Assembly: GCA_026625185.1 (NCBI GenBank)
Contig: CP113000.1
Span: 1,623,161 to 1,687,160 of the forward strand
Direction: 5' to 3'
DNA from: Thermodesulfobacteriota bacterium
Lineage (GTDB): Bacteria; Desulfobacterota; WTBG01; JAGOGO01
DNA: 64,000 nt
The stretch's first letter is position 1. Each line of letters begins with the position of its first letter. This document shows, in pieces, positions 26,515 to 42,558 of the stretch. Under the pieces are notes generated by a model that saw only the letters and a program-made list of their open reading frames with translations, was not told where the DNA came from and made no database searches. The translations under genes were made by a program, and so were the position numbers.

Positions 26515-26577
26515 AATAAACCATTTAGATGCGGGATTCGTGATCCAGGATTCGGGATGCAAAGGGAAGGAGGGAAG

Positions 26578-26970: not shown

Positions 26971-27061
26971 GGCGCTGATGAAGAGAAGCAGAATTTATCC
27001 CGTATCTCGTATCCTGTATCTTATATCGAGCATCTCCTATTTTAACTTAATGTAATGTATT

Positions 27062-27823: not shown

Positions 27824-27967
27824 GAGTCGCAAAGTGAGTCGCAAGGTCGAAAGGTCTCAGAGTCCCAAAGTTGTAGAATTAGGTTTTTCCCCTTAGACCG
27901 TTAGACCCTTAAGACCATGTGACTCTTTGACCTTGACTGAAGAAGAATAACATTAATGAGGTTAGGT

Positions 27968-28921
27968 ATGAGTAAAAAAGCGAGCAAAACCTTAATTGGG
28001 GCCTTTGTGGTTGGTGCCTTGGTGTTGGCGGTGATCGGGATTTTGCTTTTCGGGTCCGGTCAGTTTTTTTCCGAGAGTAAAACGTATGTGCTTTTTTTTA
28101 GGGGGTCGGTGAAAGGGCTCAATGTCGGCGCGCCGGTCAGTTTTCGTGGGGTCAAGGTTGGTCAGGTTACGGATATTAAAGCTCGCATTGATCCCCGTGA
28201 CTATGCTCTGAGTATAGCAGTCTATATAAAAACTAACCCCGGTTGGCTTACGCCGGTCGCTGAAGAAAAAACCCTGGATATGATACTCTCAAGCTTTGAG
28301 CGGGGAAAAATTCTTCAAGATTTGGTGACTAAAAAAGGTCTCCGCGCCCAGCTTCAACTGCAAAGCCTGGTGACCGGATTGCTGGAAATCGAATTTGACT
28401 TTTATCCTGATACTCCGATTACCTTGCTGGGTACTGAACCAAATGTCTCTGAGCTTCCTACCATTCCGTCAGATATGGAAAAGCTGCAGATGACACTCAG
28501 CAAATTTATTGCAAAGTTTGACAACCTTCCCATCGACGAATTTGTTAAGCGGCTCACGGATATCGCGGCAGGAGTTGATCGCCTGATAAATTCCCCTCAA
28601 ACCGAAGAGAACGTCCGTTCTTTCAATGCGACCCTAAAGGGATTACAGAGGTTGGTTGGCAATTTAAATAATCAGGTAAATCCGATGTCAACAAACATCC
28701 AGGAAAGTTTTAAGGCCGCCAAAGCGGCTCTTGAGCAAGCTCAAAAAACACTTGCCGCCGTTGAAGGTGTGACTGGAGATGCATCTTCATTGCGTTACCA
28801 AATGGGCGAAGCGCTCGAACAGATTTCTGATGCAGCACGTTCCCTTCGAGTGACGGCTGAGTATTTAGATCAACACCCTGAAGCGTTAATTCGCGGGAAA
28901 AAAGAATCAGGAGGAAAGTGA
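27968..28921 (+). CDS. mlaD: MlaD/MCE-domain protein (single MCE domain, N-terminal anchor)
   Basis: The protein has a TM anchor, one MCE domain and a helical C-terminus (the TAEYLDQHPEALIRGK tail is shared with PqiB at 18280). A GAGGT RBS precedes the ATG. Confidence 0.75.
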   Translation: MSKKASKTLIGAFVVGALVLAVIGILLFGSGQFFSESKTYVLFFRGSVKGLNVGAPVSFRGVKVGQVTDIKARIDPRDYALSIAVYIKTNPGWLTPVAEEKTLDMILSSFERGKILQDLVTKKGLRAQLQLQSLVTGLLEIEFDFYPDTPITLLGTEPNVSELPTIPSDMEKLQMTLSKFIAKFDNLPIDEFVKRLTDIAAGVDRLINSPQTEENVRSFNATLKGLQRLVGNLNNQVNPMSTNIQESFKAAKAALEQAQKTLAAVEGVTGDASSLRYQMGEALEQISDAARSLRVTAEYLDQHPEALIRGKKESGGK

Positions 28922-28922
28922 T

Positions 28923-29549
28923 ATGGAGAAAAGATTTTGCTTTCCGGTAGGATGCATTATGTTAGGTGTTTGGGTTTTGCTCCTCAGTGGATGTGGCCAC
29001 ACGCAACCGTCCCGATTCTATCTTTTGCAATCCATACCGGGCATGGAGAAGGACAAGCACGCTGCTACCAACGGACAGAGCCTTACGATCTGTGTGGGTC
29101 CGGTCATGATCCCCAAATACCTTGATCGTCCTCAAATCGTAACCACGACAAAGACAAGCGAGCTTAAGCTGGCTGAGTTTGACCGGTGGGCAGAGCCATT
29201 CAAGGACAACTTTTCTCGTGTTCTGACGGAAAATCTCTCGGAGGCCTTGGAGACGGATCGGGTCGCTGTCTTTCCCCGGGAAAGCGCTGCATCTTCTGAT
29301 TATCAGATAATAGTAACGGTTATCCGTTTTGATGGTGAGTCCGGGGGCAATGCGGTTTTAAGTGCCCGCTGGAGTATTTATGGAGAGGGTGGGAAGAAAG
29401 AACTTTTTTCGAAAAAATCGGATCTCAGCGAGCCAGCAGGGGTGCAAGGGTATGAAGCATTGGTGTCTGCCCAGAGCCGGATGATTGCGGGATTGAGCAA
29501 GGAAATCGCGGGAGCGATAAAAGCACTTGGGCAAGGCAAGACTCCTTAA
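28923..29549 (+). CDS. PqiC/YmbA-like auxiliary lipoprotein (paralog of the 17687 gene)
   Basis: The lipobox is LLSGC followed by the SRFYLL motif. The ATG comes directly after the mlaD stop. Confidence 0.7.
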   Translation: MEKRFCFPVGCIMLGVWVLLLSGCGHTQPSRFYLLQSIPGMEKDKHAATNGQSLTICVGPVMIPKYLDRPQIVTTTKTSELKLAEFDRWAEPFKDNFSRVLTENLSEALETDRVAVFPRESAASSDYQIIVTVIRFDGESGGNAVLSARWSIYGEGGKKELFSKKSDLSEPAGVQGYEALVSAQSRMIAGLSKEIAGAIKALGQGKTP

Positions 29550-29707
29550 CGATCAAACGAACAACCGGCCCAGGGATGATTTTACGGAAACCAAAAACAA
29601 TCTGGCTCGGAAGACCGATATATCGTGATCAGGTATAAGAAGTAGCGAACGGATTGCGGATTGAAGAGATGTTCATAAAAAAGCGAGGTTAAGAGAGAAA
29701 ATAATCA

Positions 29708-29941
29708 ATGACTTTTCGAAGAGGCTTTGCTGCAATTTCATTTTGGCTTGCGTTACCTTTTGGAATAGCCGGTGGTATTTTCATGGCAATTAAGGCAAGG
29801 AACCCCTTTGTGTTTATTCTGGGCTTTATGGTTGGTCTGGTCTTTATTATGGCGGTCTATGTTTTAATTGCCCTTATCCTGGCGCCCGCGGTTAAGATCT
29901 TTTGTGAAAAATTCAAAAGAAAAAAAGAACAAAACACTTAA
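29708..29941 (+). CDS. Small two-TM membrane protein (hypothetical)
   Basis: The 77-aa ORF has two hydrophobic helices and a basic C-terminus. Confidence 0.35.
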   Translation: MTFRRGFAAISFWLALPFGIAGGIFMAIKARNPFVFILGFMVGLVFIMAVYVLIALILAPAVKIFCEKFKRKKEQNT

Positions 29942-30304
29942 GGGATTTAATACGTCTGTGAACCTTTTCCCCCCTATCCCTGTTATTTAAAGTTTTTGCG
30001 TAATATCGCACCTGTCCTTAAAATTCTACGAAATATCAAAGGTATTTTCCTGATACAACTTCCCTTCTGCCTATTATAATCATGATAACTATTTAATATT
30101 GAGGTGTTATTTTTGCACGATTAATTATCAAGGTTCACGGCACAAAATTTGTATTGTCTTATTAAACTGCGATTAATATGAGGGTTCTCTTTCAAATGTC
30201 ATTCCTACATAAGCAGAAATCCAGAACCAAACGAAGTTAAGAGACTCCCACCTTCGAGGGTGTGAGAGAATGGAAATTGATTAGAGGTACCAATGAATTA
30301 ATGA

Positions 30305-32053
30305 ATGAAAGGAAATGGTGATATTATGCCCGATAAAATTTATCGTATTAATATGACCGATTTGAAGGTTACGAATGAAGAAGTACCGGAACAATGGAAA
30401 GGGCTGGGGGGCAGGGGTTTGACTTCCACAATTGTGGCTCAGGAAGTAAAGCCCACCTGTCATCCTTTGGGAAAGTACAATAAGCTGATAATTGCACCGG
30501 GGTTGCTAACCGGAACAGCGGCGGTCAACTCTGGGAGGCTTTCGGCTGGTGCTAAAAGTCCGCTGACCGGGACAATCAAAGAAAGTAATGCTGGTGGAAC
30601 TGCTGCCCAGTTTTTTGCCCGATTGGGCATTAAGGCACTTATTATTGAAGGTCTGCCCCAGAAAGACACCTTTTACAGCCTTCATGTGGATAAGAGCGGA
30701 GTTACGATTCAGGAAGACACGGAATTCGCAGGCAAAGGGAATTATGAAGTAATGCAAATGGTTCAAAAAAAGTACGGAGAAAAGATTGGTATACTATCCA
30801 TCGGACCGGCAGGGGAAATGCGGATGGCCGCAGCCAATATTTCGGTGAAGGATCCTGATGGAACTATTCGCAGCCTGGGGCGGGGAGGACTGGGGGCGGT
30901 CATGGGTTCAAAAAAGATAAAGTTCATTACCATTGATGATACGGATGGCCCCGGTGTCCAGATTGCTGATCCGGAAAAATTCAAAACCGCTTCCCGCACG
31001 TTTGCCAAGGGGGTTATTGCCCATCCGGTGAGCGGCGAATCACTCAAGCTTTACGGCACCGATGTGCTGGTAAACATCTTAAACGAAGCCGGCGGCCTGC
31101 CAACGGAAAATTTCCGCTATGGTCAATTCCCTGGTCATGAAAAAATAAGCGGTGAAACGGTATATGAGACGATCCTGAGCCGGAAAGGCAACCCAAGCCA
31201 TATCTGCCATCGGGGATGTGTCATCAGATGTTCTCAGGTTTACAATGATAAAAATGGCAATTATGTTACTTCGGGCTTTGAATATGAAACGATCTGGGGC
31301 TTTGGCGCCAACTGCAATATAGATGACCTGGATATCATCGCGGAAGCTGATCATGTTATGGACGATGTCGGGGTTGACTCAATAGAAACCGGGGTGGCGA
31401 TGGGCGTTGCCATGGAAGCCGGGATCATTCCCTTTGGCGACGGGGCCGGAGTTCTGAGGTTGTTGAAAGAAATCGGCACTGGTACTCCCCTGGGCAGAAT
31501 TCTCGGCTCCGGGGCTGAAGGAGTCGGGAAAACATATGGTATCACCAGAGTACCGGTGGTGAAGGGCCAGGGGCTTTCCGCCTATGACCCGCGATCAATA
31601 AAAGGTATGGGCATTACCTATGCGACGTCAACCATGGGCAGTGATCATACCGCCGGTTACTGTGTTCCGGTAAACATCCTGAACGTTGGGGGTTTTGTTG
31701 ATCCTCTGAAAAAGGAAGGGCAGGTAGAGCTCTCAAGAAGGCTGCAGATAGGTACTGCATTATTGGATAGCACTGGTCTTTGTCTCTTCGTTGCCTTTTC
31801 TGTCTTAGACAATCTGGACTTATTTCAAGCTATGATGGACATGATAAATGCCAAATATGGTCTCAGCATGACGATCGATAATGGAAGAGCACTGGGTAGA
31901 AAAATCCTTCGCACCGAGCATGAATTCAATTTGGCTGCAGGGTTCACCAACAAGGATGACCGGCTCCCGGAATTTTTCGAGGAACCGGTGCCCCCGCACA
32001 ATGCGGTGTGGGATTTCACTGACGAAGAGATTGATTCATTCTGGAATTTCTGA
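30305..32053 (+). CDS. aor: Aldehyde:ferredoxin oxidoreductase, second paralog (tungsten AOR family)
   Basis: The ORF has the AOR N-terminal signature (YRINMTDLKVT.EEVPE...GGRGLTS) and full AOR length. An alternative start at M8 (30326) is possible. Confidence 0.85.
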   Translation: MKGNGDIMPDKIYRINMTDLKVTNEEVPEQWKGLGGRGLTSTIVAQEVKPTCHPLGKYNKLIIAPGLLTGTAAVNSGRLSAGAKSPLTGTIKESNAGGTAAQFFARLGIKALIIEGLPQKDTFYSLHVDKSGVTIQEDTEFAGKGNYEVMQMVQKKYGEKIGILSIGPAGEMRMAAANISVKDPDGTIRSLGRGGLGAVMGSKKIKFITIDDTDGPGVQIADPEKFKTASRTFAKGVIAHPVSGESLKLYGTDVLVNILNEAGGLPTENFRYGQFPGHEKISGETVYETILSRKGNPSHICHRGCVIRCSQVYNDKNGNYVTSGFEYETIWGFGANCNIDDLDIIAEADHVMDDVGVDSIETGVAMGVAMEAGIIPFGDGAGVLRLLKEIGTGTPLGRILGSGAEGVGKTYGITRVPVVKGQGLSAYDPRSIKGMGITYATSTMGSDHTAGYCVPVNILNVGGFVDPLKKEGQVELSRRLQIGTALLDSTGLCLFVAFSVLDNLDLFQAMMDMINAKYGLSMTIDNGRALGRKILRTEHEFNLAAGFTNKDDRLPEFFEEPVPPHNAVWDFTDEEIDSFWNF

Positions 32054-32093
32054 GAAACGTTTTGGCAGTTCAATTTTCGGAAACAGGTTATTC

Positions 32094-32312
32094 ATGAAGG
32101 TTAAATTATTTGCAGCATTCCGTGACGGAAGATTTAAAGAAAAAGAGTGGGGCTATTTTGACGGTATTACCGTGGGATCTATTCTGGAAGCGCTCAATAT
32201 TAATAAGAAGGAAGCGGGGGTATTATTAGTTAACTCCCGCCATGCAGAAACAAATTATAGACTGGGAAAAGGGGATACCCTTTCTCTTTTTCCGGTCATC
32301 GGGGGTGGATAG
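32094..32312 (+). CDS. moaD: MoaD/ThiS-family ubiquitin-like sulfur carrier (C-terminal GG)
   Basis: The 72-aa ORF runs MKVKLFAAFRD...GDTLSLFPVIGGG, showing the beta-grasp pattern and a terminal Gly-Gly. The ATG at 32094 is in frame within the longer ORF in the track. Confidence 0.65.
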   Translation: MKVKLFAAFRDGRFKEKEWGYFDGITVGSILEALNINKKEAGVLLVNSRHAETNYRLGKGDTLSLFPVIGGG

Positions 32313-32389
32313 AAAGAAATTAGTTATCTGAAATAATAAAGTCTTAAGAATGAAGGTTCTTTAATAACTTTCAGCTCAACGAGGAAGCG

Positions 32390-34711
32390 ATGAAAAAAGG
32401 ATTGTCAAAGATACTAATGCTTAGTGTTGTGTGTTTTGGGGTCTTCTACTTGTGCGCAAACAGCTTTGCAATTACGATTAATGAGGTAAAACCAGGAGAA
32501 GATGTCTTCGCATATATCACCAGAGTCAAAAGGGGCTTTAATCAGACCCTTTATCAGCAGGTGATCGGTGCTTCCAATGCTTTCAAAGAAGGCGATGAAA
32601 CTATTGGGGTGGCGGCCGATGATGAATCGACCCGGCAACATGCCCGGACGCTTTTGGCAAACACGAAGATCAAAGACCTCTATGAGCACCCTCTCCTTGC
32701 CGACGACCTGCAGAAGCTGATCTGGCAAACCACCGATCAGGCCCAGTACAAGAAGGTTAAAGACTGGACCATGGGACAGCTGAAAGAATTTCTTTTAACC
32801 AAACCTGAGGCAGAGATCAAGGGCATCATGCATGGCTTGACCAGTGATGCGATTGGGTGTGTCCCCAAGCTGATGAGCAATGAAGAGTTAATCGCCATTG
32901 ATCAAAAGATATTCAACCCCTTGCCGGGAACCAAGATGGGGGCAAAAGGGTACTTGAGTGCCCGCATACAGCCCAATTCGCCCACTGACAACCCCGATGA
33001 TATTGTCTGGGAGGTGTTTGACGCGTTTTCCTATGCCACTGGCGATATCGTTATCGGAACCAACCCGGTGGACAGTCAGGTAGAGAGTGTAGCCACCGTG
33101 GAGAAAGCGCTCAAGGATGTGGTCGATACTTTCAAGCTTCAGGAGGTCGTTCCCTGGTGTGTGCTTTCCCATATCGATGTCCAGGCAGAGGTTAGTAAGA
33201 AGTATCCGGGAACGGTTGAGACCATGTTCCAGAGCCTCGCCGGAACAGATGATTGCAACAAGACCTTTGATGTCACGGTTGAGAAGATAATGAATTATGC
33301 AAAATCCAAGAAAGGAGAGAGATACGGGCTCTACTTTGAGACCGGTCAGGGCTCTGAATTTACCAACGGCGCGGCCAAAGGGGCTGACATGATGGTGCTG
33401 GAATCCCGGAAGTACGGCTTTAGCCGGGCGGCACAGATGGAACTGGCTAAAGTCCAGCCTCAAGGGGCGTGGCTCCACGTCAATGATGTGGCCGGATTCA
33501 TCGGGCCCGAGGTCTTCAGGACCCGCGAGCAACTTGTGAGATGCTGCCTGGAAGATATCGCCATGGGTAAACTCCACGGATTAACCATTGGTCTTGATAT
33601 TTGTTCAACCCTGCACATGACCGTCAGCCTCGATGATCTCAATTGGTGCCAGGACCAGATCATGCCGGCCAACCCTGCTTACTTGATGAGCCTGCCCACC
33701 AAGAATGACCCCATGTTGAGCTATCTGACCACGTCGTTTCAGGATCATGTCCGCCTGAGGGAAAAATTCGGCCTTAAAGTGAACGATCCCATGTGGGCTT
33801 TCTATAAGCTGATCGGGATTGTGGACAAGAACAACAAGTACACGAAGAATTTTGGCGATCCAATCTGGGTGTACTACCAGTACCGGCTGGCCAAGGGGGA
33901 CAAGCGTTCCAAAGAAGCAATTTATGCTGAAGGAAAGAAGAAGATCAAGGAAGTTGAGGCGAGAGGCGTTGATCTGGCAATCGGTCACGGCAAGGATTTA
34001 TGGGATCTCAATCCGCAACTGGCGGCCAAGGTAAAAACCTACTACGACGATGCCAAGATATCCCTCTGGGCCGAGCTTACTCCTGCCTTTATCAAGACAA
34101 TCCCCAATGCCCTGCAGGTCAGCACCCTGTCCAAGGATCGGGAGGACTATATCCTCCATCCGGCCAGCGGCGAGAAACTGAGCCCGGAATCCGTCTCTGC
34201 CCTTGAAAAGCTCAGGGACTCATGGGCAGGAATGGAGCCGAATGCGCAGATCGTGATTTCCGATGGCCTGAACGCCAAGGCCATTATGGATGATGGGCAT
34301 CTTGCACCTTACCTGGAAGAAATCCGGATGCTGCTGACCAGTGCCGAAGCTGTTGGGAGCGGAAAGACCGCTATTGTGAGCGAAAAGAACATCGTCTTCA
34401 CCAGCGGCAGGGTACGGGCCGGGTATGAGATCGGCTGCATGCTCTTTGGGAAATCAGATCCGAAAAAGCTGAAGGGGATTATTCACATCATCGGGGAGCG
34501 GCCGGGGACCATGCACCATTCCTATTCGGTGTATATCACCGTTGCCAAAGGAGAGGCATGGGCTCAAAAGAAGATTGATCACGATATTACGAAACTCGTA
34601 TGCAACATAGCAGATACAGCCTTACCTCCGAAAGAAGCGGCCAAGGAGACCCTCACCATAATAAGGGAAATGGTTGCGAAGCAGGCTCCTTCCAGCCGAA
34701 GCTCCCAGTGA
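32390..34711 (+). CDS. eutBC: Single-chain ethanolamine ammonia-lyase (EutB heavy + EutC light chain fusion) with N-terminal hydrophobic extension
   Basis: Residues about 30-480 align to EutB (LTSDAIGCVPKLMSN, GTFSARLQPNSPTDNPDD, GDIVIGTNPV, LYFETGQGSE, VAGFIGPE, MGKLHGLTIGLD, NDPMLSYLTTSFQD). Residues about 560-740 align to EutC (QIVISDGLNA...HIIGERPG). A GAGGAAG RBS precedes the start. The first 26 aa (MKKGLSK + ILMLSVVCFGVFYLCANSFA) are signal-peptide-like. Confidence 0.8.
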   Translation: MKKGLSKILMLSVVCFGVFYLCANSFAITINEVKPGEDVFAYITRVKRGFNQTLYQQVIGASNAFKEGDETIGVAADDESTRQHARTLLANTKIKDLYEHPLLADDLQKLIWQTTDQAQYKKVKDWTMGQLKEFLLTKPEAEIKGIMHGLTSDAIGCVPKLMSNEELIAIDQKIFNPLPGTKMGAKGYLSARIQPNSPTDNPDDIVWEVFDAFSYATGDIVIGTNPVDSQVESVATVEKALKDVVDTFKLQEVVPWCVLSHIDVQAEVSKKYPGTVETMFQSLAGTDDCNKTFDVTVEKIMNYAKSKKGERYGLYFETGQGSEFTNGAAKGADMMVLESRKYGFSRAAQMELAKVQPQGAWLHVNDVAGFIGPEVFRTREQLVRCCLEDIAMGKLHGLTIGLDICSTLHMTVSLDDLNWCQDQIMPANPAYLMSLPTKNDPMLSYLTTSFQDHVRLREKFGLKVNDPMWAFYKLIGIVDKNNKYTKNFGDPIWVYYQYRLAKGDKRSKEAIYAEGKKKIKEVEARGVDLAIGHGKDLWDLNPQLAAKVKTYYDDAKISLWAELTPAFIKTIPNALQVSTLSKDREDYILHPASGEKLSPESVSALEKLRDSWAGMEPNAQIVISDGLNAKAIMDDGHLAPYLEEIRMLLTSAEAVGSGKTAIVSEKNIVFTSGRVRAGYEIGCMLFGKSDPKKLKGIIHIIGERPGTMHHSYSVYITVAKGEAWAQKKIDHDITKLVCNIADTALPPKEAAKETLTIIREMVAKQAPSSRSSQ

Positions 34712-34827
34712 GGAGAGCATGTGTTATCGGGTTAAGAAAATGATAGTGATTCTCAATTAAGCTAAATTGCTTACTATGGACACTAAAAATAGGGATCGAA
34801 TTATAGGTCAGGTGAGAGGATCTTAAA

Positions 34828-36723
34828 GTGAATGTTTTAATTTTTCTGATAGTGTTTCCGCTGGTTATCTCAGTGTTGGCGTTAGCACTCCCGCGTGGTC
34901 TTCTTATCAAAAGGATTATTGGGGTGATCGCCAATGTAGTTCTGTGTGCGGTACCAATCTATCTTCTGGTCACGTATCTTGATAAGGGTCCTGCCTATTT
35001 CCACCTTGAGAGCCATCTGATCAATAATTCCATGCTTGTGGTGGAAATTCTCATCGCAGCCTATATAATTTATATTTCCATCCGGGCAAAAAGATACCTT
35101 CCCGTGCTGCTTGTTTTTCTACAATCAGTGATTATGCTTAGTTTCGAGTTTACCTCCGGTAGGGGGATGCAGATTGAGCACAGCCTGTTCGTGGATAAGT
35201 TCTCCATCATCATGGCTTTGATCGTGGGTTGTATCGGAAGCGCCATCTGTCTTTACGCAATCGGATATATCCCGGAATATCACGAACACTACAAGGAGGT
35301 GAAAGCAAGGCCCAGGTATTTCTTTTTCCTCATGTACCTCTTCCTGTCCGCCATGTTTGGCATCGTTTTCTCCAATAACCTCATGTGGATCTATTTCTTC
35401 TGGGAAATTACCACGCTCTGTTCATTTTTGCTGATCGGCTATAAAAACGACCAGGCATCCCAGGAGAGCGCATTCAGAGCACTCATCATGAATCTACTGG
35501 GAGGAGTTGTTTTCGCGGTCGGCCTTGTCTACCTGTACCATTCCTCCCAAGTCATGGAATTAAATAAATTGATTCAGCTCGATAAGGGCTACGTATTAAT
35601 TCCGGCCGTGTGCATTGCCTTTGCCGGCCTGGTAAAATCAGCCCAATTCCCGTTTTCCTCCTGGCTGACGGGCGCCATGGTGGCACCGACACCAGTGTCA
35701 GCGTTGCTGCATTCGAGCACGATGGTAAAAGCGGGGGTCTATATCATCCTGAGAGTGGCCCCGGTGTTAGAGAACACTGTAGCAGCAAAAATGCTCATGC
35801 TCATCGGCGGGGTCAGTTTTCTGATTACCGCTTTCATTGCCATTTCTCAGAGCAATGCCAAAAAGGTGCTCGCCTACTCGACCATTTCCAACCTTGGGTT
35901 GATCGTCGCCTGTGCAGGAATTAATACCTATTCGGCAGTATGGGCAGCGATTCTGCTGATTATTTTTCATGCGGTAGCAAAGTCGCTCCTCTTTCTCTGT
36001 GTGGGGATTATCGAGTACAAGCTTGGCAGCCGTGATATAGAGGATATGGACTATCTGATCATGCGAATGCCCAAGCTCACCGCAATCATGATGACCGGCA
36101 TGGCCGGGATGTTTCTTGCTCCTTTTGGCATGATCATAGGCAAGCTCGCCACGCTGAAAGCATTTGTCGATTCCAATCCGGGGATGGCAATAATTTTAGC
36201 CTATGGAAGCGGGGCCACGGTCTTTTTCTGGATTAAATGGATGGGCAAAATTATTTCCATTAAACATGGCGTCTTTAAGGTCATGGAAGACCGGGTCAGC
36301 CGCTGGGAATGGATTACCCTGGGCATATTGGCCATTTCGACGGTGGCGGCATGCATTGGGTTTCCTCTCATCGCATTCCGCCTGGTGGACCCCTTTATCC
36401 TGGAGGTCTTTGGAAAAACCGTTATCGTTGATCCATTTAGTGTCTATATGATTCTCCTCATGATGGTTGGCCTGTTAATCCTTCTTCCCCTTGGTCTTTT
36501 TTTCTTTGGATTCGTCAATAAAGGATATAAGAGGGTCGGAACCTATCTTGGCGGCGCCAATATTGACGATGTCACTTTTGAAGGGGCCATGGAATCTTCC
36601 CAGACAATTGAGCTCAAGAATTACTATCTGGAAAAATTCTTTGGAGAAAACGTTTTATTCAATGCCGGGGTTTTTATTTCGTTAATATTGTTGGTCATCA
36701 TGTTTGGAGTTGCAATCATATGA
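34828..36723 (+). CDS. echA: Ech hydrogenase subunit A (NuoL/MrpA-like antiporter membrane subunit)
   Basis: The 631-aa polytopic protein of the complex I antiporter-like family starts with GTG behind a GGTGAGAGGA RBS. It is the first gene of a six-gene ech block. Confidence 0.7.
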   Translation: MNVLIFLIVFPLVISVLALALPRGLLIKRIIGVIANVVLCAVPIYLLVTYLDKGPAYFHLESHLINNSMLVVEILIAAYIIYISIRAKRYLPVLLVFLQSVIMLSFEFTSGRGMQIEHSLFVDKFSIIMALIVGCIGSAICLYAIGYIPEYHEHYKEVKARPRYFFFLMYLFLSAMFGIVFSNNLMWIYFFWEITTLCSFLLIGYKNDQASQESAFRALIMNLLGGVVFAVGLVYLYHSSQVMELNKLIQLDKGYVLIPAVCIAFAGLVKSAQFPFSSWLTGAMVAPTPVSALLHSSTMVKAGVYIILRVAPVLENTVAAKMLMLIGGVSFLITAFIAISQSNAKKVLAYSTISNLGLIVACAGINTYSAVWAAILLIIFHAVAKSLLFLCVGIIEYKLGSRDIEDMDYLIMRMPKLTAIMMTGMAGMFLAPFGMIIGKLATLKAFVDSNPGMAIILAYGSGATVFFWIKWMGKIISIKHGVFKVMEDRVSRWEWITLGILAISTVAACIGFPLIAFRLVDPFILEVFGKTVIVDPFSVYMILLMMVGLLILLPLGLFFFGFVNKGYKRVGTYLGGANIDDVTFEGAMESSQTIELKNYYLEKFFGENVLFNAGVFISLILLVIMFGVAII

Positions 36724-37601
36724 ACAGTATTTCTGAGATCATCCAATCCTGGAGTATCATTGAAAGGATGCTGGCCTTTTTCCTGCTTGCGCCCATTGCG
36801 GGTGGCGTACTGGCCGGTATTGACCGGAAATTGAGCGCACGGTTGCAGGGCAGATATGGCCCCCCGGTGAGGCAGCCTTTTTTTGATGTTCTAAAACTTT
36901 TCCAAAAAGAGCGGATCCTCGTTAACAAATTTCAGAACTTTCCGATAGTGCTCTTTTTTCTGTTTACGGTTTTTTCCGGCGCTCTTTTCTTTTCCGGTGC
37001 GAGTATCCTTTTGGCAATCTTCAGTTTAGCCCTGGCCGGAACTTTTTTTATCCTGGGTGGATTTTCGGTCAGTTCCCCGTATAGCCACCTTGGCGCTGAG
37101 CGCGAATTGATTCAGATGATGTCATACGAACCCATGGTCATTCTTGTGGCGGTCGGCATGTACCAGGTGACGGGAAGCTTTACGGTTGCGGACATTGTCC
37201 AACACCAGGCGTCGCTGATTCTTTACCTTCCCGGGGTGTTCGCGGGCTTTGTTTATATCCTCACCATTAAGTTCCGAAAATCTCCTTTTGACCTTTCCAT
37301 GTCTCATCATGCGCACCAGGAACTGGTGAGGGGGATCACTACCGAATTTTCCGGTCCTGCCCTGGGCCTCATAGAGATTACTCATTGGTATGAAAATGTG
37401 CTTCTCTTGGGCATGGTATACCTCTTTTTTGCCTTTAATCCCTGGCTGGCCATCGTTGCGTCACTGGGAACGTATTTGTTTGAAATTATTATTGATATGA
37501 ATTATGCCCGATTTAAGTGGCAGCTTACGTTCTGGAGTTCATGGTTGTTTACGGCTGTGGCCGGGGTTTCAAATATTATTGTGCTTTGTTTTTTGAAATG
37601 A
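36720..37601 (+). CDS. echB: Ech hydrogenase subunit B (NuoH/HycD-like membrane subunit)
   Basis: The ORF has the NuoH-family motif (GGVLAGIDRKLSARLQGRYGPP) and its start overlaps the echA stop. Confidence 0.8.
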   Translation: MNSISEIIQSWSIIERMLAFFLLAPIAGGVLAGIDRKLSARLQGRYGPPVRQPFFDVLKLFQKERILVNKFQNFPIVLFFLFTVFSGALFFSGASILLAIFSLALAGTFFILGGFSVSSPYSHLGAERELIQMMSYEPMVILVAVGMYQVTGSFTVADIVQHQASLILYLPGVFAGFVYILTIKFRKSPFDLSMSHHAHQELVRGITTEFSGPALGLIEITHWYENVLLLGMVYLFFAFNPWLAIVASLGTYLFEIIIDMNYARFKWQLTFWSSWLFTAVAGVSNIIVLCFLK

Positions 37602-37619
37602 CTTGGGAGAACAAAAAAC

Positions 37620-38105
37620 ATGGGTTGGTTTAAAAAATCGCCGTGGCTTCTTCATTATAACGCGACCAGCTGTAACGGGTGCGATATTGAGATTATTGCC
37701 TGCCTGACCCCTTTGTACGATCTGGAGCGGTTTGGTATTATCAACACCGGAAACCCAAAACACGCTGACATCCTGGCGGTCACCGGGTCGGTCAATGAGA
37801 AGAGCAAGCAGATTCTGAAAAATCTTTATGATCAAATGCCGAATCCCAAGGTAGTCGTGGCGGTAGGCCTTTGCGCCATTTCCGGATGCGTTTTTCAGGA
37901 CTGCTACAATGTGCTGGGAGGAGCCGACAAGGTGTTGCCGGTAGATGTGTATGTTCCGGGATGTTCTGCGCGGCCGGAATCGATTATCGACGGAGTACTT
38001 CAGGCGTGTGAGATTCTTGAAGAGAAATACGCCCAGCAGAAAAAAGCAAAGCAATCATCACCAAAATCACAAACAAATCAACGGCAAGGTTTTAACCATG
38101 AGTGA
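37620..38105 (+). CDS. echC: Ech hydrogenase small subunit (NuoB-like, proximal [4Fe-4S])
   Basis: The Cys ligand pattern CNGC...GxCAxxGC...PGC fits the NuoB/HycG family. Confidence 0.85.
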   Translation: MGWFKKSPWLLHYNATSCNGCDIEIIACLTPLYDLERFGIINTGNPKHADILAVTGSVNEKSKQILKNLYDQMPNPKVVVAVGLCAISGCVFQDCYNVLGGADKVLPVDVYVPGCSARPESIIDGVLQACEILEEKYAQQKKAKQSSPKSQTNQRQGFNHE

Positions 38106-38544
38106 ACCGCAGGAAATCATTCTTATCGAAAAAAATAATTTACTGGGAATTGTGTCTGACCTCTTTGCAGAGGGCTACCGACTTGTGCAGATCGGCTGCA
38201 CCACACTCCAGAGCGCCTATGAACTTAACTATTCTTTTGATAAAGAGTACCATTTTAAAAATCTGCGGTTTACCGTGGCACCGGAAGAAGAGATCCAAAG
38301 CATCAGCGTTATCTATCCAAATGCCTTTCTGTATGAAAATGAAATTCATGACCTTTTTGGCCTTACCATCAAAAACATAACCATTGACTACCAGGGGAAG
38401 CTTTACCGAACTGCCCTTAAGGTTCCTTTTAGCATTGAGAATTGTCCGGTGCCCGAGCCCCCAAAACCAAAGAAAGAAACTCCTCCAGAACCGCCGGAAA
38501 GCCAAAAACAAAATTCGGCAGACACTAAACCGCAAGAGGATTAA
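38098..38544 (+). CDS. echD: Ech hydrogenase subunit D (NuoC-like)
   Basis: The ORF has the NuoC 30-kDa family core and a Pro/Lys-rich C-terminus. Its ATG overlaps the echC stop (ATGAGTGA). Confidence 0.7.
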   Translation: MSEPQEIILIEKNNLLGIVSDLFAEGYRLVQIGCTTLQSAYELNYSFDKEYHFKNLRFTVAPEEEIQSISVIYPNAFLYENEIHDLFGLTIKNITIDYQGKLYRTALKVPFSIENCPVPEPPKPKKETPPEPPESQKQNSADTKPQED

Positions 38545-38558
38545 AGGAGTAAACGTCT

Positions 38559-39638
38559 ATGGCGCATAAGAATATCATCCCTTTTGGTCCCCAACATCCC
38601 GTACTTCCGGAACCGATCCATTTTGATCTCGTAACTGAAGATGAAAAGATTGTTGATGCTATCCCTTCGATAAGTTACGTCCACCGCGGGCTGGAACGAC
38701 TTGTAGAAAAAAGAGATTTTATTGATTTCGTGCATATTGCCGACCGGATTTGCGGCCTGTGCAGCTTTATGCACTGTATGGGATATTGCCAGGCAGTGGA
38801 AGAGGTTATGGGTATCCAGGTGCCGGAACGTGCTCTGTACCTCAGATCCATATGGGCGGAGCTGGCGCGGATACATAGTCATATCTTCTGGCTCGGTGTT
38901 TCTGCCGACGCTTTTGGTTATGAAAGCCTTTTTATGCAATCCTTGCGTCTCCGGGAATTGGTGCTTGATATCATTGAAGAAACCACCGGCGGAAGGGTCA
39001 TCTTTGGCTCCTGCAAGGTGGGTGGGGTGAGGAGAGACATCGATAGCGAAACTTTAAAGGGGCTTGTTGCTAGGTTGACAAATATGAAAGCCGATTTGGA
39101 TGAACTCACTTCCGTCTTTATTAATGATTATTCCATTCAGCACCGATTGGTGGGGGTAGGATTTTTTTCCAAAGAAGATGCCTATACTCTTGGGTGTGTT
39201 GGCCCCATGGCCCGGGCGAGCGGTTTCGCTCTTGACATGCGAACTCTTGGGTATGCTGCCTATAAGTTCCTGGAGATAGAACCGGTCGTGGAATACGGGG
39301 GAGACTGTTATGCCCGATGCCTCGTGCGAATTCGGGAAATTTTCCAATCCATGGATTTAATCCGTCAGGCAGCCGGAAAAATTTCCGAAGGGCCTATTGA
39401 TGTCAAGGTGAAGGGCACGCCGAATGGCGAGTATTTTTCCCGGGTCGAACAGCCTCGGGGTGAAGTGATTCATTACGTCAAAGGGAATGGTTCAAAATTT
39501 CTCCAGCGGTTCCGGGTGAGAGTCCCAACATTCACCAATATCCCAGGGATGATCAAAGTATTGAAAGGTTCTCAGGTGGCTGATGTCCCGAATATTATTT
39601 TGACCTTGGATCCGTGTATCAGCTGCACAGAAAGGTAA
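38559..39638 (+). CDS. echE: Ech hydrogenase large subunit (group 4 [NiFe] catalytic subunit, NuoD-like)
   Basis: The NiFe-binding N-terminal RICGLCS and C-terminal DPCISCTER motifs are present. At 359 aa it matches known EchE length. Confidence 0.85.
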   Translation: MAHKNIIPFGPQHPVLPEPIHFDLVTEDEKIVDAIPSISYVHRGLERLVEKRDFIDFVHIADRICGLCSFMHCMGYCQAVEEVMGIQVPERALYLRSIWAELARIHSHIFWLGVSADAFGYESLFMQSLRLRELVLDIIEETTGGRVIFGSCKVGGVRRDIDSETLKGLVARLTNMKADLDELTSVFINDYSIQHRLVGVGFFSKEDAYTLGCVGPMARASGFALDMRTLGYAAYKFLEIEPVVEYGGDCYARCLVRIREIFQSMDLIRQAAGKISEGPIDVKVKGTPNGEYFSRVEQPRGEVIHYVKGNGSKFLQRFRVRVPTFTNIPGMIKVLKGSQVADVPNIILTLDPCISCTER

Positions 39639-39650
39639 GGCAATAAGAAC

Positions 39651-40043
39651 ATGAGATCGTTTACTATGACAAAAACGGTGGTCAAGAACCTGGTCAAGGG
39701 ACCCGCAACCCTCATGTACCCGAAAAAAAAGAGGTTTTTTACTAAGATTACCAGGGGAAGCGTAGAAATTGATATCCAGAAATGCATTTTCTGCGGGATA
39801 TGCAGCAAACGGTGTCCAACCTACGCCATTGTTGTCACCAAAGTCACCAAAGAATGCAAAGAATGGGAGATCGACCGCCTCAAATGCTGCGCCTGCAATC
39901 TTTGTGTTGAAGTCTGTCCGAAAAAGTGTCTCTCGATGACCAACCAGTATACCCCGCCAGCAAGAGATAGAACGGCAGGGATCCATAAACAAATTTTCAC
40001 CGGCCCTGAAATCCTTACGGGAAAGGAAGAGGAGCATTCCTAA
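39651..40043 (+). CDS. echF: Ech hydrogenase subunit F (NuoI-like 2x[4Fe-4S])
   Basis: Two ferredoxin cluster motifs are present (CIFCGICSKRCP and CCACNLCVEVCP). Confidence 0.8.
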   Translation: MRSFTMTKTVVKNLVKGPATLMYPKKKRFFTKITRGSVEIDIQKCIFCGICSKRCPTYAIVVTKVTKECKEWEIDRLKCCACNLCVEVCPKKCLSMTNQYTPPARDRTAGIHKQIFTGPEILTGKEEEHS

Positions 40044-40150
40044 CAGGGCCAGAATTAAAGAAATTATTTGCAAATCAATTAAATATATTTTAAAATTGCA
40101 AAATAAAACTGTTATCAAAAACTGGCTAAGAAGAAGCAAGGGGAAAAACA

Positions 40151-40345
40151 ATGGCAAAAACGGTGGTTATCGATACGCCCGAATGCACGGCATGCGGAAC
40201 CTGTGTGGAGATATGTCCGGAAGTTTTTGCACTTGAGGATGGAGCTGAGGCTGCGACCGTAATCCAACCCACCGGCGGGCCGGAAGACTCTATCCAGGAG
40301 GCGATTGGTAGCTGCCCTACCTCGTGTATTCACTGGCAGGATTAG
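40151..40345 (+). CDS. fdx: Small monocluster ferredoxin
   Basis: The 64-aa ORF has the pattern CTACGTCVEICP...CP.SCI, like single-cluster [4Fe-4S]/[3Fe-4S] ferredoxins. Confidence 0.75.
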   Translation: MAKTVVIDTPECTACGTCVEICPEVFALEDGAEAATVIQPTGGPEDSIQEAIGSCPTSCIHWQD

Positions 40346-40533
40346 TTCCCGGACTGTCTTTTTTTCTTAATAATCTTACCTTCAATCTTGGGCGTGTGCT
40401 GGTTGTGTTTTTGTCTATCCTTATTACCGGCCAGGTTACCGGTGACGGAGAATCAAATTGGCTCAAAGGAGTGCAGCTCCTTGCGGTCTATGTGATTTTA
40501 GGTATTGTTTTCTTTTTTAGTGTCGGAGAATGA
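40324..40533 (+). pseudogene. C-terminal remnant of a Ca2+:H+ (CAX/ChaA-family) antiporter
   Basis: The last 45 aa (ITGQVTGDGESNWLKGVQLLAVYVILGIVFFF) match the conserved CAX C-terminal helix. The N-terminal roughly 280 aa are absent, and the fragment overlaps the fdx 3' end. Confidence 0.5.
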
Positions 40534-40577: not shown

Positions 40578-41261
40578 ATGAAATGGGCAGATAATTTTTT
40601 CGGATACTTCCGAAGAATCCGTTTTATTTTTCTCTTTTTCTTCCTGCTGCTTTGCATCGGCATAATGCCTCTTTTGACCGAGTGGGGGTTCGGCTATGTA
40701 TCAGAAATTTTACAGGTGATTCTTGCCCTCACCCTCATCGCCTCCTTGATCACCATTGTTAGGGAGCGTCTCTTGTCTGGTTTATTTGTCATTGTATTTG
40801 TGATGGCGGTTCTTAAGTTGTTGTATCTTTTGCTTCATTTCAATGTTTTCCTGCCTACGAGTCAAGGGCTCCAGGTATTTTTTTGTTTGATAGCGGTCGT
40901 CCTGATTTTACGGTTTATCATGCAGGTGAAAACGGTCGATAACGATGTTGTTTTTGCTGCGTTAAGCGTTTATCTTTTATTCGGTCTCATTTTTGGTTTC
41001 ATTTATTTCATGGTAGAAGGACTGTCGCCCGGTTCTCTTGTCCACAACGTGACAAGCGCTTCTCTTGAAGGAGGTATCCGCTTAAGTCAAGCCGTTTATT
41101 TCAGTTTCGTTACCCTCGCGACATTAGGGTATGGTGATATAATACCAGCGAACGACATAATAAGGTCCCTGGCAATCATACAAACAATGTGCGGTCAGGT
41201 TTATCTGGTGGTATTGGTTGCCCGTCTGGTAACCCTTTATGGAGGGTCTTATAAACGATAA
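40578..41261 (+). CDS. Potassium channel (two-TM pore domain, TLGYGD selectivity filter)
   Basis: The TLATLGYGDIIP filter motif is flanked by TM helices and preceded by additional N-terminal TMs. Confidence 0.7.
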   Translation: MKWADNFFGYFRRIRFIFLFFFLLLCIGIMPLLTEWGFGYVSEILQVILALTLIASLITIVRERLLSGLFVIVFVMAVLKLLYLLLHFNVFLPTSQGLQVFFCLIAVVLILRFIMQVKTVDNDVVFAALSVYLLFGLIFGFIYFMVEGLSPGSLVHNVTSASLEGGIRLSQAVYFSFVTLATLGYGDIIPANDIIRSLAIIQTMCGQVYLVVLVARLVTLYGGSYKR

Positions 41262-41337
41262 AAAAATAAAGAGACCTTTTAAGAATCGCTCGTAATGAGT
41301 GATTAGGATAATCACCTATAGTTTTGAGGTTAACAAA

Positions 41338-42552
41338 ATGAAATCATTTCCCGTCACGCGTTCTTCTTTTTTGTTTGTATTCCTAATTATTTTTTATTTG
41401 GTGGGTTCTTTTTTTGCCGGCTGCAAAAAAAGCCCTCAGACCGGGTCTCCACCGCCAGACGTTGAAGTCGTTTCGGTTCAGCAAAAGGATGTTCCTATTT
41501 ATACTGAGTGGGTTGGCACAATGGATGGATTGGTGAATGCCACCATCCGGGCCCAGGTTTCGGGTTATCTCATCAAACAGAACTACCAGGAAGGCGAATT
41601 GGTCAGAAAAGGGCAGGTGCTCTTTGAAATCGATCCGCGATCGTTCCAGGCGGCGTTGGCGCAGGCTCAAGGGGAACTCGCCCGGCAGGAGGCAGCTCAT
41701 GAGAATGCGAGCCTCACTTTAGCGAGAGTAAAACCCCTTGCGGAGCAGAATGCGCTGAGCAAAAGAGACCTTGACAACGCAACGAGCACCGAACTGGCGA
41801 CTCAGGCATCAGTTTTCGCTGCCAAGGCAGCAGTGCAAAAGGCGGAGTTGGATCTTGAATTCACGCGGATCACCTCCCCTATTGACGGCATCGCGGGGAT
41901 TGCCAAAGCCCAGCTTGGCAACCTAGTGGGACCGGGAGCAAGCGAGGAATTGACCACCGTTTCCACCGTTGATCCTATCAAGGTTTACATTCAGTTGAGC
42001 GAACAACAGTATTTGAAAAGCAGACAAGCACTGGAGGCGCGCGAGGCGCAAGCCCGAGAGGTTCCTCTTCAACTAATTCTTGCGGACGGGAGTGTATACC
42101 CTCACCAGGGGCAATTCTCCCTGGCAGACCGTCAGGTGGATGTGACCACGGGAACGCTTAAGGTCGCCACCCTCTTCCCTAATCCGGGGAATCTCCTCCG
42201 TCCAGGCCAGTTTGGTCGGGTCTGCGCACAATTGGAAGTTAAGAAAGGTGCGCTGCTCGTGCCCCAGCGGGCTGTAACGGAAATGCAAGGAAAATATCTA
42301 GTCGCGGTCATAGAGAAGGACAATAAGGTCGATGTCAGGCCGGTGCAGGTCGCGGAGAAAATAAGTTCGGACGTCATAATTTCCCAGGGGCTGAAATTCG
42401 GCGAGAAAGTTGTGGCTGAGGGAATACAGAAGGTAAAATCGGGACAAATGGTTATTCCCAAGCCTTTCGCTCCCGAGAAACCGACTGTCGCTTCGGGAGA
42501 TTCCGGTAGGACGGAGGCGAAACCTTCCCCGGCTCCAATGAAAAAGAGGTAA
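41338..42552 (+). CDS. RND efflux periplasmic adaptor (membrane fusion protein), copy 1
   Basis: The protein has lipobox AGC, the HlyD/biotin-lipoyl-like hairpin (VLFEIDPRSFQAALAQAQGELA) and a beta-barrel C-terminus. Confidence 0.8.
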   Translation: MKSFPVTRSSFLFVFLIIFYLVGSFFAGCKKSPQTGSPPPDVEVVSVQQKDVPIYTEWVGTMDGLVNATIRAQVSGYLIKQNYQEGELVRKGQVLFEIDPRSFQAALAQAQGELARQEAAHENASLTLARVKPLAEQNALSKRDLDNATSTELATQASVFAAKAAVQKAELDLEFTRITSPIDGIAGIAKAQLGNLVGPGASEELTTVSTVDPIKVYIQLSEQQYLKSRQALEAREAQAREVPLQLILADGSVYPHQGQFSLADRQVDVTTGTLKVATLFPNPGNLLRPGQFGRVCAQLEVKKGALLVPQRAVTEMQGKYLVAVIEKDNKVDVRPVQVAEKISSDVIISQGLKFGEKVVAEGIQKVKSGQMVIPKPFAPEKPTVASGDSGRTEAKPSPAPMKKR

Positions 42553-42558
42553 GGCACT

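Follow-up and report, generated by a model that had tools for sequence, protein, structure and literature searches.

The partners so far known for group 4 [NiFe] hydrogenases are formate dehydrogenase, carbon monoxide dehydrogenase (CODH) and free ferredoxin, and ethanolamine catabolism is currently explained by bacterial microcompartments (BMCs) or by short cytoplasmic operons. In this regard, we analyzed a 64,000-nt stretch of contig CP113000.1 from an uncultured, anaerobic Thermodesulfobacteriota bacterium (the window), which carries a block of genes for a fused EutB-EutC ethanolamine ammonia-lyase (EAL; the fused protein is called EutBC below), an aldehyde:ferredoxin oxidoreductase (AOR) and a six-subunit Ech hydrogenase. 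With a probability of roughly 0.6, we propose that this block encodes a pathway from ethanolamine to acetate, NH4+ and H2 in which the Ech hydrogenase fed by AOR is the only energy-conserving step.

Among hydrogenase systems, the formate hydrogenlyase of E. coli (FdhF with HycBCDEFG, group 4a) is alike in leading electrons from a soluble molybdo/tungstopterin dehydrogenase through a poly-Fe-S subunit to a complex-I-like, H2-evolving hydrogenase, and the two PDB chains that best match EchE from the window are HycE of this system (7z0s_E) and MbhL (6cfw_L). It differs in that the input enzyme here belongs to the AOR family and the hydrogenase is a minimal six-subunit Ech; moreover, the link in the window may use a free ferredoxin, while relatives fuse the dehydrogenase to the Fe-S subunit. 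The CODH-Ech system of hydrogenogenic carboxydotrophs (CooS/CooF with CooMKLXUH, group 4c) also ties a low-potential oxidoreductase genetically and physically to an energy-converting hydrogenase, so that electrons from a donor of very low potential drive H2 evolution and ion translocation. However, the donor here would be acetaldehyde made by the lyase, and both the input enzyme and its cofactor (W/Mo-pterin) are different. The classic AOR chain is that of Pyrococcus furiosus, in which AOR reduces a small single-cluster ferredoxin that is reoxidized by the group 4 membrane hydrogenase (MBH). The window has the same three kinds of parts (an AOR matching 1AOR at E 5e-83, a hydrogenase with MbhL as a best match, and a Fer4_13 ferredoxin). 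In Pyrococcus, by contrast, the genes are scattered and amino-acid catabolism supplies the aldehydes, whereas here one cluster includes an aldehyde-making lyase and the hydrogenase is of the Ech type, without an Mrp module.

On the ethanolamine side, Pelobacter carbinolicus grows on ethanolamine, its EAL genes are two fused eutBC copies, and it has no eutA (PMC3543383). Its 43-gene eutBC cluster, described in 2012, contains aorA2 (Pcar_0456), and its eutBC genes are flanked by genes for substrate-binding proteins (SBPs) (PMC3543383); Pcar_0456 was later shown to be tungsten-induced and acetaldehyde-oxidizing (PMC4275255). In Thermacetogenium phaeum, the AOR of a BMC-type eut cluster is induced only on ethanolamine (PMC6436200). 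The linkage of EAL to AOR is thus not new, having already been noted for these two organisms. The eutBC1/eutBC2-aorA2 cluster of P. carbinolicus resembles the arrangement studied here in this linkage, in the EutB-EutC fusion, in the lack of eutA and in having SBP genes nearby (PMC3543383), and the T. phaeum cluster resembles it in the EAL-AOR link and differs in using a BMC (PMC6436200). For neither cluster does the paper report an Ech hydrogenase or an export signal of the lyase (PMC3543383, PMC6436200). Short operons such as that of Pseudomonas aeruginosa (eutBC-eat-aldehyde dehydrogenase, regulated by EatR) show that BMC-free eut loci are also already known, and like the block they have no shell proteins (PMC5821096). 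In these operons, however, EutB and EutC are separate and are joined by a permease for ethanolamine and an NAD-dependent aldehyde dehydrogenase, all of them cytoplasmic, whereas the block has no permease, its fused lyase carries a signal peptide, and AOR and Ech replace the dehydrogenase. The initial annotation of this DNA knew of no description of the EAL-AOR-Ech coupling as a defined operon; in the literature searched this holds for the Ech link and not for the EAL-AOR linkage or the absence of a BMC. In the literature searched, outside which lie most subscription journals, we found no Ech in such a cluster, no EchF::AOR fusion, no AOR-linked group 4 hydrogenase and no EAL export signal.

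Gene content of the block

Searches with Pfam and NCBIfam models identified ten plus-strand genes at 30305-40345, and the families named in the initial annotation (AOR, a MoaD-like protein, EAL, a six-subunit Ech and a ferredoxin, all on the plus strand) were borne out. The genes, together with the signal peptide of the lyase, are as follows.

30305..32053, plus strand: aldehyde:ferredoxin oxidoreductase, tungsten/molybdopterin AOR family (AFOR_N 216 bits, AFOR_C 255 bits)
32094..32312, plus strand: ThiS/MoaD-like protein, 72 aa, with a GG end (Pfam ThiS 35.5 bits)
32390..34711, plus strand: EutB-EutC ethanolamine ammonia-lyase, 773 aa, one open reading frame (ORF) with both Pfam domains
32390..32470, plus strand: Sec-like signal peptide of EutBC, residues 1-27, MKKGLSKILMLSVVCFGVFYLCANSFA followed by ITI
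34828..36723, plus strand: EchA, NuoL/MrpA-like antiporter-type membrane subunit (Proton_antipo_M, Proton_antipo_N), with a GTG start and a GAGAGG Shine-Dalgarno sequence
36720..37601, plus strand: EchB, NuoH-like membrane subunit (Pfam NADHdh), overlapping echA by 4 nt
37620..38105, plus strand: EchC, [NiFe] small subunit, NuoB-like (Oxidored_q6, E 3e-31)
38098..38544, plus strand: EchD, NuoC-like (Complex1_30kDa), overlapping echC by 8 nt
38559..39638, plus strand: EchE, [NiFe] large subunit, group 4 (NiFeSe_Hases, Complex1_49kDa)
39651..40043, plus strand: EchF, 2x[4Fe-4S], NuoI-like (Fer4 families)
40151..40345, plus strand: single-cluster ferredoxin, 64 aa (Fer4_13, E 9e-16)

From AOR to the ferredoxin the junctions range from -8 to +116 nt, in keeping with the very short or overlapping spacing described before. 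Two details of the earlier gene list had to be changed. EutB and EutC, which had been taken for two genes, are one fused ORF, and the block, which had been drawn from 29708, begins with AOR: the 77-aa ORF at 29708-29941 lies 363 nt away from it, matches no family and was found only in copies of the same genome, and is not counted in the block. The sequence of the window is identical to contigs of several JGI metagenomes, the size of one of which is 1.6 Mb, and its AOR and EchE and a near-identical EAL are filed at NCBI under a Thermodesulfobacteriota bacterium metagenome-assembled genome (MAG), e.g. WAC06195.1 and WAC06201.1.

Conserved linkage of EutBC, AOR and Ech

We examined the linkage by three independent scans, which started from EutBC (19 genome loci), from AOR (80 metagenome loci) and from EchE (four long contigs). 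AOR, EutBC and Ech are co-located in at least nine other genomes or contigs, and the cluster occurs in four gene orders (L and P numbers denote loci and protein homologues).

Arrangement 1, AOR-(MoaD)-EutBC-EchABCDEF-ferredoxin: the window, L007, L110
Arrangement 2, EchABCDEF-SBP-AOR-(MoaD)-EutBC: L006 (Syntrophorhabdus), L015/L022, L113
Arrangement 3, EchABCDE-EchF::AOR-EutBC-SBP: L021/L109, L111, L108
Arrangement 4, AOR-EutBC-ferredoxin: L005 (Thermodesulfovibrionales), L030, L036

In the EutBC scan, AOR and/or Ech lay within 10 kb in 6 of the 19 genome loci, and these six belong to a Syntrophorhabdus MAG, a Thermodesulfovibrionales MAG and several MAGs of Thermodesulfobacteriota or "delta proteobacterium". 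Where the AOR shares at least 77% identity with that of the window, the AOR scan found EutBC adjacent in 6 of 10 loci; among 70 loci with a more distant AOR it found EutBC adjacent in none (Fisher p = 7e-7). Among the four EchE homologues, one stands in an Ech-SBP-AOR-EutBC cluster, one beside AOR without EutBC (L114), and two in Ech operons alone (L112, L115). We had considered that this Ech clade might be exclusive to AOR, and the idea was dropped, with our confidence lowered, since two of the four sampled loci have no AOR. The co-location conserved in several gene orders, the restriction of EutBC adjacency to one AOR clade and the EchF::AOR fusions described below support the view that EAL, AOR and Ech are functionally coupled. 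The same three observations uphold the suggestion of the initial annotation that the three are coupled and that energy would be conserved through Ech alone. EchE and EutBC homologues of these clades number in the thousands in public metagenomes, including one 90%-identity cluster with 900 members.

Several single loci deserve mention. In L114 (4546-11475), AOR lies directly 5' of an orthologous Ech, without EutBC. The orthologous Ech operons of L112 and L115, without AOR, lie between pyruvate kinase and GAPDH or Mla genes, and EchF of L112 is apparently truncated to 48 aa. An orphan PotD-like SBP (SBP_bac_8) with its own signal peptide (L006 6887-7993, L111 9927-11123, L113 11531-12673) sits inside Ech-AOR-EutBC clusters of other lineages without ABC transporter partners, and the window cluster has none. 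MAG MFD02809.bin.1.75 holds two Ech-AOR-EutBC clusters (L015, L022); the EutBC of L015, with a signal of the twin-arginine translocation (Tat) type, looks intact, and the Sec-type EutBC of L022 (10001-11345) has in-frame stops near its 5' end and is a pseudogene or an assembly error.

Fusion of EchF to AOR in relatives

In relatives of one lineage EchF and AOR form a single polypeptide. We obtained ten full-length, diverged EchF::AOR sequences of 689-718 aa from separate assemblies (P0121, P0122, P0270 and others), whose linkers differ and most of which have lost the initiator Met of AOR. One cluster at 90% identity has 60 members, at least nine of them full-length and from separate contigs, and a second cluster (83% identity) has the same architecture. 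The AORs of Geobacteraceae/Desulfuromonadaceae are 70-71% identical to the EchF::AOR query from L021, with AOR as the matched part. L021 itself is an error-prone assembly with a frameshifted eutBC, and an assembly artefact was therefore suspected; it was ruled out by nine further full-length fusions, by the different linkers and by L111, an Illumina-type contig with an intact echA-B-C-D-E-echF::aor-eutBC and a Tat-type EutBC of 792 aa.

Since the fusion has been kept while the sequences diverged, we regard it as strong evidence that, in the relatives that bear it, electrons pass straight from AOR to the Fe-S subunit of Ech. FdhF stands in a like relation to HycB-F in formate hydrogenlyase, and CooS/CooF to the Coo hydrogenase. 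Judged from these genes, AOR may serve as a dedicated electron-input module of Ech, as formate dehydrogenase does in formate hydrogenlyase.

Properties of AOR, Ech and the ferredoxin

The true start of AOR is likely the ATG at 30326, which gives 575 aa and matches 575-aa homologues. The protein aligns over its full length with PDB 9mqx (E 1.6e-90) as well as with 1AOR, and the aligned motifs include three clustered Cys with a distal Cys ([4Fe-4S]), EYE and D-H (catalytic Glu/His). By analogy with Pcar_0456 and Pcar_0665, two Pelobacter enzymes of this family that are tungsten-induced (PMC4275255), it is expected to contain tungsten and to prefer acetaldehyde. In 49 of 70 informative metagenome loci a homologue of the MoaD-like protein is encoded no more than 500 nt 3' of AOR; the protein is a general AOR companion and probably acts in pterin cofactor maturation. 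A second AOR paralogue of a different type (597 aa, 4218-6011, plus strand) is present in the window. A 153-aa poly-[4Fe-4S] protein (3760-4221, plus strand) overlaps its start and is its own Fe-S partner, and the pair (3760-6011) adjoins glycogen phosphorylase and pyruvate kinase genes.

All six Ech subunits are present, two membrane and four hydrophilic, in the order echABCDEF with tight junctions. EchE has the Ni-binding motifs RICGLCS and DPCISC, and it ends with CTER and a stop codon three residues after the second motif, without a C-terminal extension. The large subunits of Ech and CooH likewise stop just after the second Ni motif. The KO-based name at JGI is also "ech hydrogenase subunit E". 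We therefore predict an Ech-type (group 4e) hydrogenase, for which ferredoxin-dependent H2 evolution and ion translocation would follow as family properties.

Homologues of the 64-aa ferredoxin stand at the cluster end in L007 and L110 and after AOR-EutBC in L005, L030 and L036, and the gene is absent from the fusion-type clusters L021 and L111. This distribution fits a shuttle role where a covalent link is absent, although the clusters of arrangement 2 have neither the fusion nor the ferredoxin, and the 64-aa protein is a candidate electron shuttle from AOR to Ech. L007, the closest cluster of the same gene order, has an extra 64-aa ferredoxin copy between echD and echE (16068-16244) beside the one after echF.

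The fused ethanolamine ammonia-lyase

The EutB domain scores 649 bits with NCBIfam NF011649 (cut-off 554) and E 2e-147 with Pfam EutB. For the EutC domain, Pfam gives 103 bits against a gathering threshold of 25.8, and the NCBIfam EutC equivalog gives only 73 bits against a cut-off of 230. An AlphaFold2 (AF2) model (pLDDT 89.8, pTM 0.88) contains both folds; it superposes on 3ABO chain A with a TM-score of 0.90 and a root-mean-square deviation of 2.2 A, and its EutC part reaches TM-scores of 0.72-0.75 with 3ABO chains B/D and 7XRM_B. The substrate-binding residues R160, Q162, N193, E287 and D362 of E. coli EutB (3ABO) align with R192, Q194, N225, E317 and D403 of EutBC, and across 35 homologues each of these positions is either invariant or conserved to at least 90%. 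The clade is about 30-40% identical to characterized EutB. From these features we predict that EutBC of the window binds adenosylcobalamin (AdoCbl) and deaminates ethanolamine.

Instead of two separate subunits in the cytoplasm or a BMC, the gene encodes a single polypeptide with an N-terminal signal peptide. The fusion and the signal are an architectural variant and do not run counter to the catalytic assignment. Every one of the 120 closest homologues listed is likewise a fused protein (723-801 aa). We speculate that the EutB-EutC fusion may make a single export unit with the cofactor held between the two domains.

Export signal on the lyase

Signal peptides were read from their n, h and c regions, the RRxFL motif and Tat-signal hidden Markov models. 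The EutBC signal consists of a K-rich n-region (+3), a 15-residue h-region and a small-x-small site (SFA, then I). A strong GAGGA Shine-Dalgarno sequence lies 5 nt before the ATG at 32390, that is, before the start of the signal peptide, and in the AF2 model residues 1-25 form an isolated helix with pLDDT < 50 that is detached from the fold.

Among the 120 closest EutBC homologues listed, 84 have a Tat RRxFL-type motif followed by an A-x-A-type site, e.g. MKRRDFLKLCAAG..., ...SRRKFLAMMGAAGVTLAAY..., and about 22 have a Sec-like signal like that of the window. The rest are mostly gene calls truncated at the 5' end, and three have no signal (P0027, P0030, P0031). The Tat motif also occurs in EutBC of Bradyrhizobium, Sinorhizobium, Microvirga, Planctomycetaceae and Aquiflexum. 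With TIGR01409, the Tat-type N-terminus of a Geobacteraceae copy scores 19.9 bits (cut-off 16.7) and others 12.7-13.9, and PF10518 matches these N-termini as well. The signal is missing from fused EutBC proteins at less than about 45% identity, and AOR and the hydrophilic Ech subunits of the window have none, EchC being without a Tat signal. The genes thus suggest that the lyase is probably exported rather than free in the cytoplasm, and the periplasm likely takes the place of the microcompartment. The compartment-free cytoplasmic reaction assumed in the initial annotation is not supported, as the lyase bears a signal peptide and most of its closest listed relatives a Tat motif.

Cobamide-containing catalytic subunits that are exported by Tat and act on the outer side of the membrane are known from reductive dehalogenases, which use the corrinoid for reductive chemistry and not, as EAL does, for adenosyl-radical chemistry. 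No AdoCbl-dependent isomerase or eliminase is known to us to be exported, and the literature searched gave none; nor did it yield any mention of EAL as periplasmic or as bearing a signal peptide, of the Tat type or otherwise. Neither fused nor exported enzymes are mentioned in the 2018 review of ethanolamine utilization (PMC5821096). The fused eutBC of P. carbinolicus in the absence of eutA (PMC3543383) is consistent with an exported lyase that lacks ATP-dependent reactivation. The context of Tat-type EutBC in Bradyrhizobium and Sinorhizobium is uninformative, save for a zinc alcohol dehydrogenase immediately 5' of the Bradyrhizobium copy (L014 8753-9775), a possible acetaldehyde sink in an aerobe.

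Proposed pathway and energetics

Taking together the protein families, the conservation of the linkage, the EchF::AOR fusion of relatives and the signal peptides, we infer the following route of export, acetaldehyde flow, electron transfer and H2 evolution. A Sec-like signal here, and a Tat signal in most relatives, would carry EutBC through the inner membrane into the periplasm, where it would convert ethanolamine into acetaldehyde and ammonium. The uncharged acetaldehyde could then diffuse back across the membrane to a cytoplasmic, tungsten-type AOR, which would oxidize it to acetate, a substrate suggested by the linkage to the lyase and by the Pelobacter AORs. Electrons would enter Ech through EchF, in this genome either by direct docking of AOR or by way of the 64-aa ferredoxin, and Ech would reduce protons to H2 and translocate ions, as its family does. 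Since no acetyl-CoA would be formed, there would be no substrate-level ATP and energy would have to be conserved chemiosmotically.

The conversion of acetaldehyde and water to acetate and H2 yields about -32 kJ/mol under standard conditions (E0' of -580 vs -414 mV), and more at low H2; the value of -580 mV for acetate/acetaldehyde is quoted in PMC4275255. Because the AOR route bypasses acetyl-CoA, the Ech step would be the sole site of conserved energy, and the same point about the bypass has been made for the AOR route in T. phaeum (PMC6436200). The pathway suits H2-scavenged, syntrophic settings, and the lack of substrate-level ATP predicts H2-dependent, syntrophic turnover of ethanolamine. 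If so, sediments and digesters would host such turnover by Syntrophorhabdus-like and Thermodesulfobacteriota organisms.

If the proposal is right, EchF::AOR would add aldehydes as a directly coupled substrate and would offer a six- or seven-protein system for studying energy conservation by Ech. Acetaldehyde toxicity would have a third solution in this fused B12 lyase, exported and independent of EutA, which would also be the first adenosyl-radical enzyme proposed to be periplasmic, raising the questions of how its cofactor is loaded and repaired. The relevance lies mainly in hydrogenase bioenergetics, B12 enzymology and anaerobic ethanolamine turnover. More tentatively, and with rather more doubt than belief, we generalize: a widespread clade of AdoCbl-dependent EAL would work outside the cytoplasm, the fusion would let one Tat or Sec signal export the unit that holds the cofactor, and in several anaerobic lineages the acetaldehyde set free there would be captured at the inner face of the membrane by an AOR built into Ech, an "aldehyde hydrogenlyase". 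Life on ethanolamine could then be purely chemiosmotic and free of microcompartments, and group 4 [NiFe] hydrogenases would gain a new substrate class.

Alternative explanations

Several points weigh against the proposed pathway. Outside the cytoplasm an AdoCbl radical enzyme has no ATP for adenosylation or for EutA-type reactivation, and EAL in its canonical form is large, a hexamer of roughly 500 kDa. The Sec-like signal in the window would entail either a membrane anchor or export of an unfolded protein, with the cofactor loaded in the periplasm. Here AOR and EchF are encoded separately and a ferredoxin gene is present, so that direct docking would be extrapolated from relatives whose EchE is about 80% and whose AOR is about 77-79% identical. 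The Ech operons of L112 and L115 lie among glycolysis genes with neither AOR nor EutBC nearby, the Ech clade thus not being exclusive to AOR, and fused EutBC is a stand-alone gene among envelope genes in many genomes. Linked loci often share flanks (pyruvate kinase, K+ channel and resistance-nodulation-division (RND) genes), and common descent may explain part of the synteny. The same pathway might instead run wholly in the cytoplasm, with no compartment, as the initial annotation has it, in which case the hydrophobic N-terminus of EutBC would be a membrane tether that is not exported (for example one that holds the lyase beside Ech) or a relic. AdoCbl supply and repair are indeed cytoplasmic, the N-terminus in the window has no twin arginine, and the signal has been lost in the three close homologues named above and is missing from the more distant fused EutBC. 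However, the charge of the n-region, the length of the h-region and the SFA site together make an export signal whose N-in topology would put the enzyme outside, and the family-wide Tat motif with AxA sites over several phyla argues that export is ancestral and under selection. We therefore consider a cytoplasmic pathway unlikely.

A second view denies any dedicated pathway: an exported lyase would scavenge nitrogen, AOR would detoxify aldehydes in general, and Ech would be a housekeeping ferredoxin:H+ enzyme, all inherited in a rearrangement-prone region. This would account for Ech without AOR or EutBC (L112, L115), for AOR-Ech without EutBC (L114), for EutBC alone (L008-L014, L024-L026 and other loci) and for flanks (pyruvate kinase, Ion_trans_2, RND) common to many of these loci. 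It is hard to reconcile with an EchF::AOR fusion kept despite sequence divergence, with a trio adjacent in four orders in Syntrophorhabdus, Thermodesulfovibrionales and Thermodesulfobacteriota MAGs, or with EutBC adjacency confined to one AOR clade, and we hold it to be decidedly unlikely. The architecture could also be as proposed and the substrate another vicinal amino alcohol, such as 2-amino-1-propanol or 1-amino-2-propanol, with AOR oxidizing the matching aldehyde. EAL turns over 2-aminopropanols (PDB 5ysr is such a complex), AORs accept a broad range of aldehydes, and the identity of this clade to characterized EutB is low. Nevertheless, all five residues that contact the substrate in E. 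coli EutB are conserved, and ethanolamine supports growth of P. carbinolicus, which has no EAL genes other than fused eutBC copies (PMC3543383); we give this reading only a small chance. Since Ech and AOR are both reversible, the module might even run backwards: ferredoxin would be reduced by Ech at the expense of H2 and the ion gradient, AOR would make aldehydes from carboxylic acids, and the lyase would be unrelated. Such a route of acid reduction by AOR is discussed in PMC6436200 and has been proposed for acetogens. But neither the block nor its relatives contain an alcohol dehydrogenase to pull the aldehyde away, and no neighbour of this AOR clade is more tightly linked to it than the lyase, which makes aldehyde irreversibly; we give the reverse direction almost no weight. 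Our preference thus stays with oxidation of acetaldehyde from an exported lyase.

Regulation, edges and neighbouring genes

Two features border the block.

29942..30304, plus strand: putative promoter region, AT-rich, 363 nt, 5' of AOR (promoter presumed)
40324..40533, plus strand: C-terminal remnant of CAX (Na_Ca_ex), aligning over 49 aa at 47% identity (E 8e-15) with residues 309-357 of the Na_Ca_ex protein of L109, which has 363 aa

The only sigma-54-like site before AOR, CGGCACAAAATTTGTA at 30138-30153, is weak, with 2 mismatches and GT instead of GC at -12; matches this good occur at chance frequency in the window, and it was taken as a lead and given no evidential weight. Located 5 kb upstream of the block (23170-25089, plus strand) is a gene for a PAS-domain sigma-54 enhancer-binding protein, and its homologues (49-51% identity) stand divergently beside AOR genes in metagenome loci L045, L055, L059 and L060. 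This activator neighbourhood suggests sigma-54 control of this AOR family. A better -24/-12-like site (TGGCACAGAATTCGCA) lies 83 nt 5' of the cluster in L113. An Rfam search gave no riboswitch or leader RNA in the window at gathering thresholds and nothing relevant at E <= 1 in 29500-30400; with no molybdenum cofactor or cobalamin riboswitch seen in this search, the locus differs from the Pelobacter aorA genes.

We also considered internal terminators or promoters that would divide the block. Terminator-like sites are at chance level (16 vs 14.4 +/- 4.1 in shuffled sequence), and promoter-like sites are somewhat enriched (29 vs 17.3 +/- 4.3), none of them compelling. Co-transcription of the block is plausible.

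GC content is 0.477 in the block, 0.482 in the upstream 6 kb and 0.547 in the downstream RND genes, so the lower GC attributed to the block earlier is true of the downstream side and not of the upstream side. The CAX remnant postulated at the right edge was confirmed by the match in L109, its ORF alone having no Pfam match; it marks a rearrangement there and lies outside the module. The argument for insertion of the block that had been read from GC and remnant is weak, since the block has the GC of its upstream flank, the remnant reflects local rearrangement rather than an island, and related genomes show a shared, repeatedly rearranged neighbourhood (pyruvate kinase, Ech, K+ channel, RND) instead of a discrete island.

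Pfam scans of all ORFs of at least 150 aa detected no BMC shell protein, EutN, EutE/aldehyde dehydrogenase, PduL or EutA in the 64 kb, and tblastn with EutM, PduA and EutN queries gave a best E of 0.9 in the same region. These results agree with the initial annotation, which had found no eut shell genes, eutE or adhE, or pduL there.

Downstream of the cluster, the window carries an Ion_trans_2 K+ channel and RND efflux genes (MFP, AcrB-like, OEP) at 40578-47206 (plus strand) and a second RND system at 47781-53724. RND genes also lie just downstream of EutBC/Ech clusters, or of stand-alone EutBC or Ech, in L024, L110, L111, L114 and L115, and in a Geobacteraceae MAG (L026) the K+ channel adjoins a stand-alone EutBC. 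Upstream there are two sets of lipid-transport type: PqiA, a triple-MlaD PqiB and PqiC with a DUF3313 lipoprotein at 17687-22030 (minus strand), and MlaE-MlaF-MlaD with an auxiliary lipoprotein at 25336-29549 (plus strand). In the latter, a gene for a "23S rRNA intervening sequence protein" (about 26557-26970) lies between mlaE and mlaF. MlaE/F-like genes are found downstream of AOR homologues in L045, L055 and L060 and beside Ech in L112.

Two patches of low GC (7001-9000 and 22001-23000) have values of 0.40-0.41 against 0.50 for the window. ORFs without a Pfam family lie inside the first patch (7381-7848) and just downstream of it (9485-10552). Toward its end the window encodes a KatG-type catalase-peroxidase of 721 aa (60634-62799, plus strand), in a genome otherwise equipped for strict anaerobiosis, and it closes with a TonB-dependent receptor fragment at 62987-63895.

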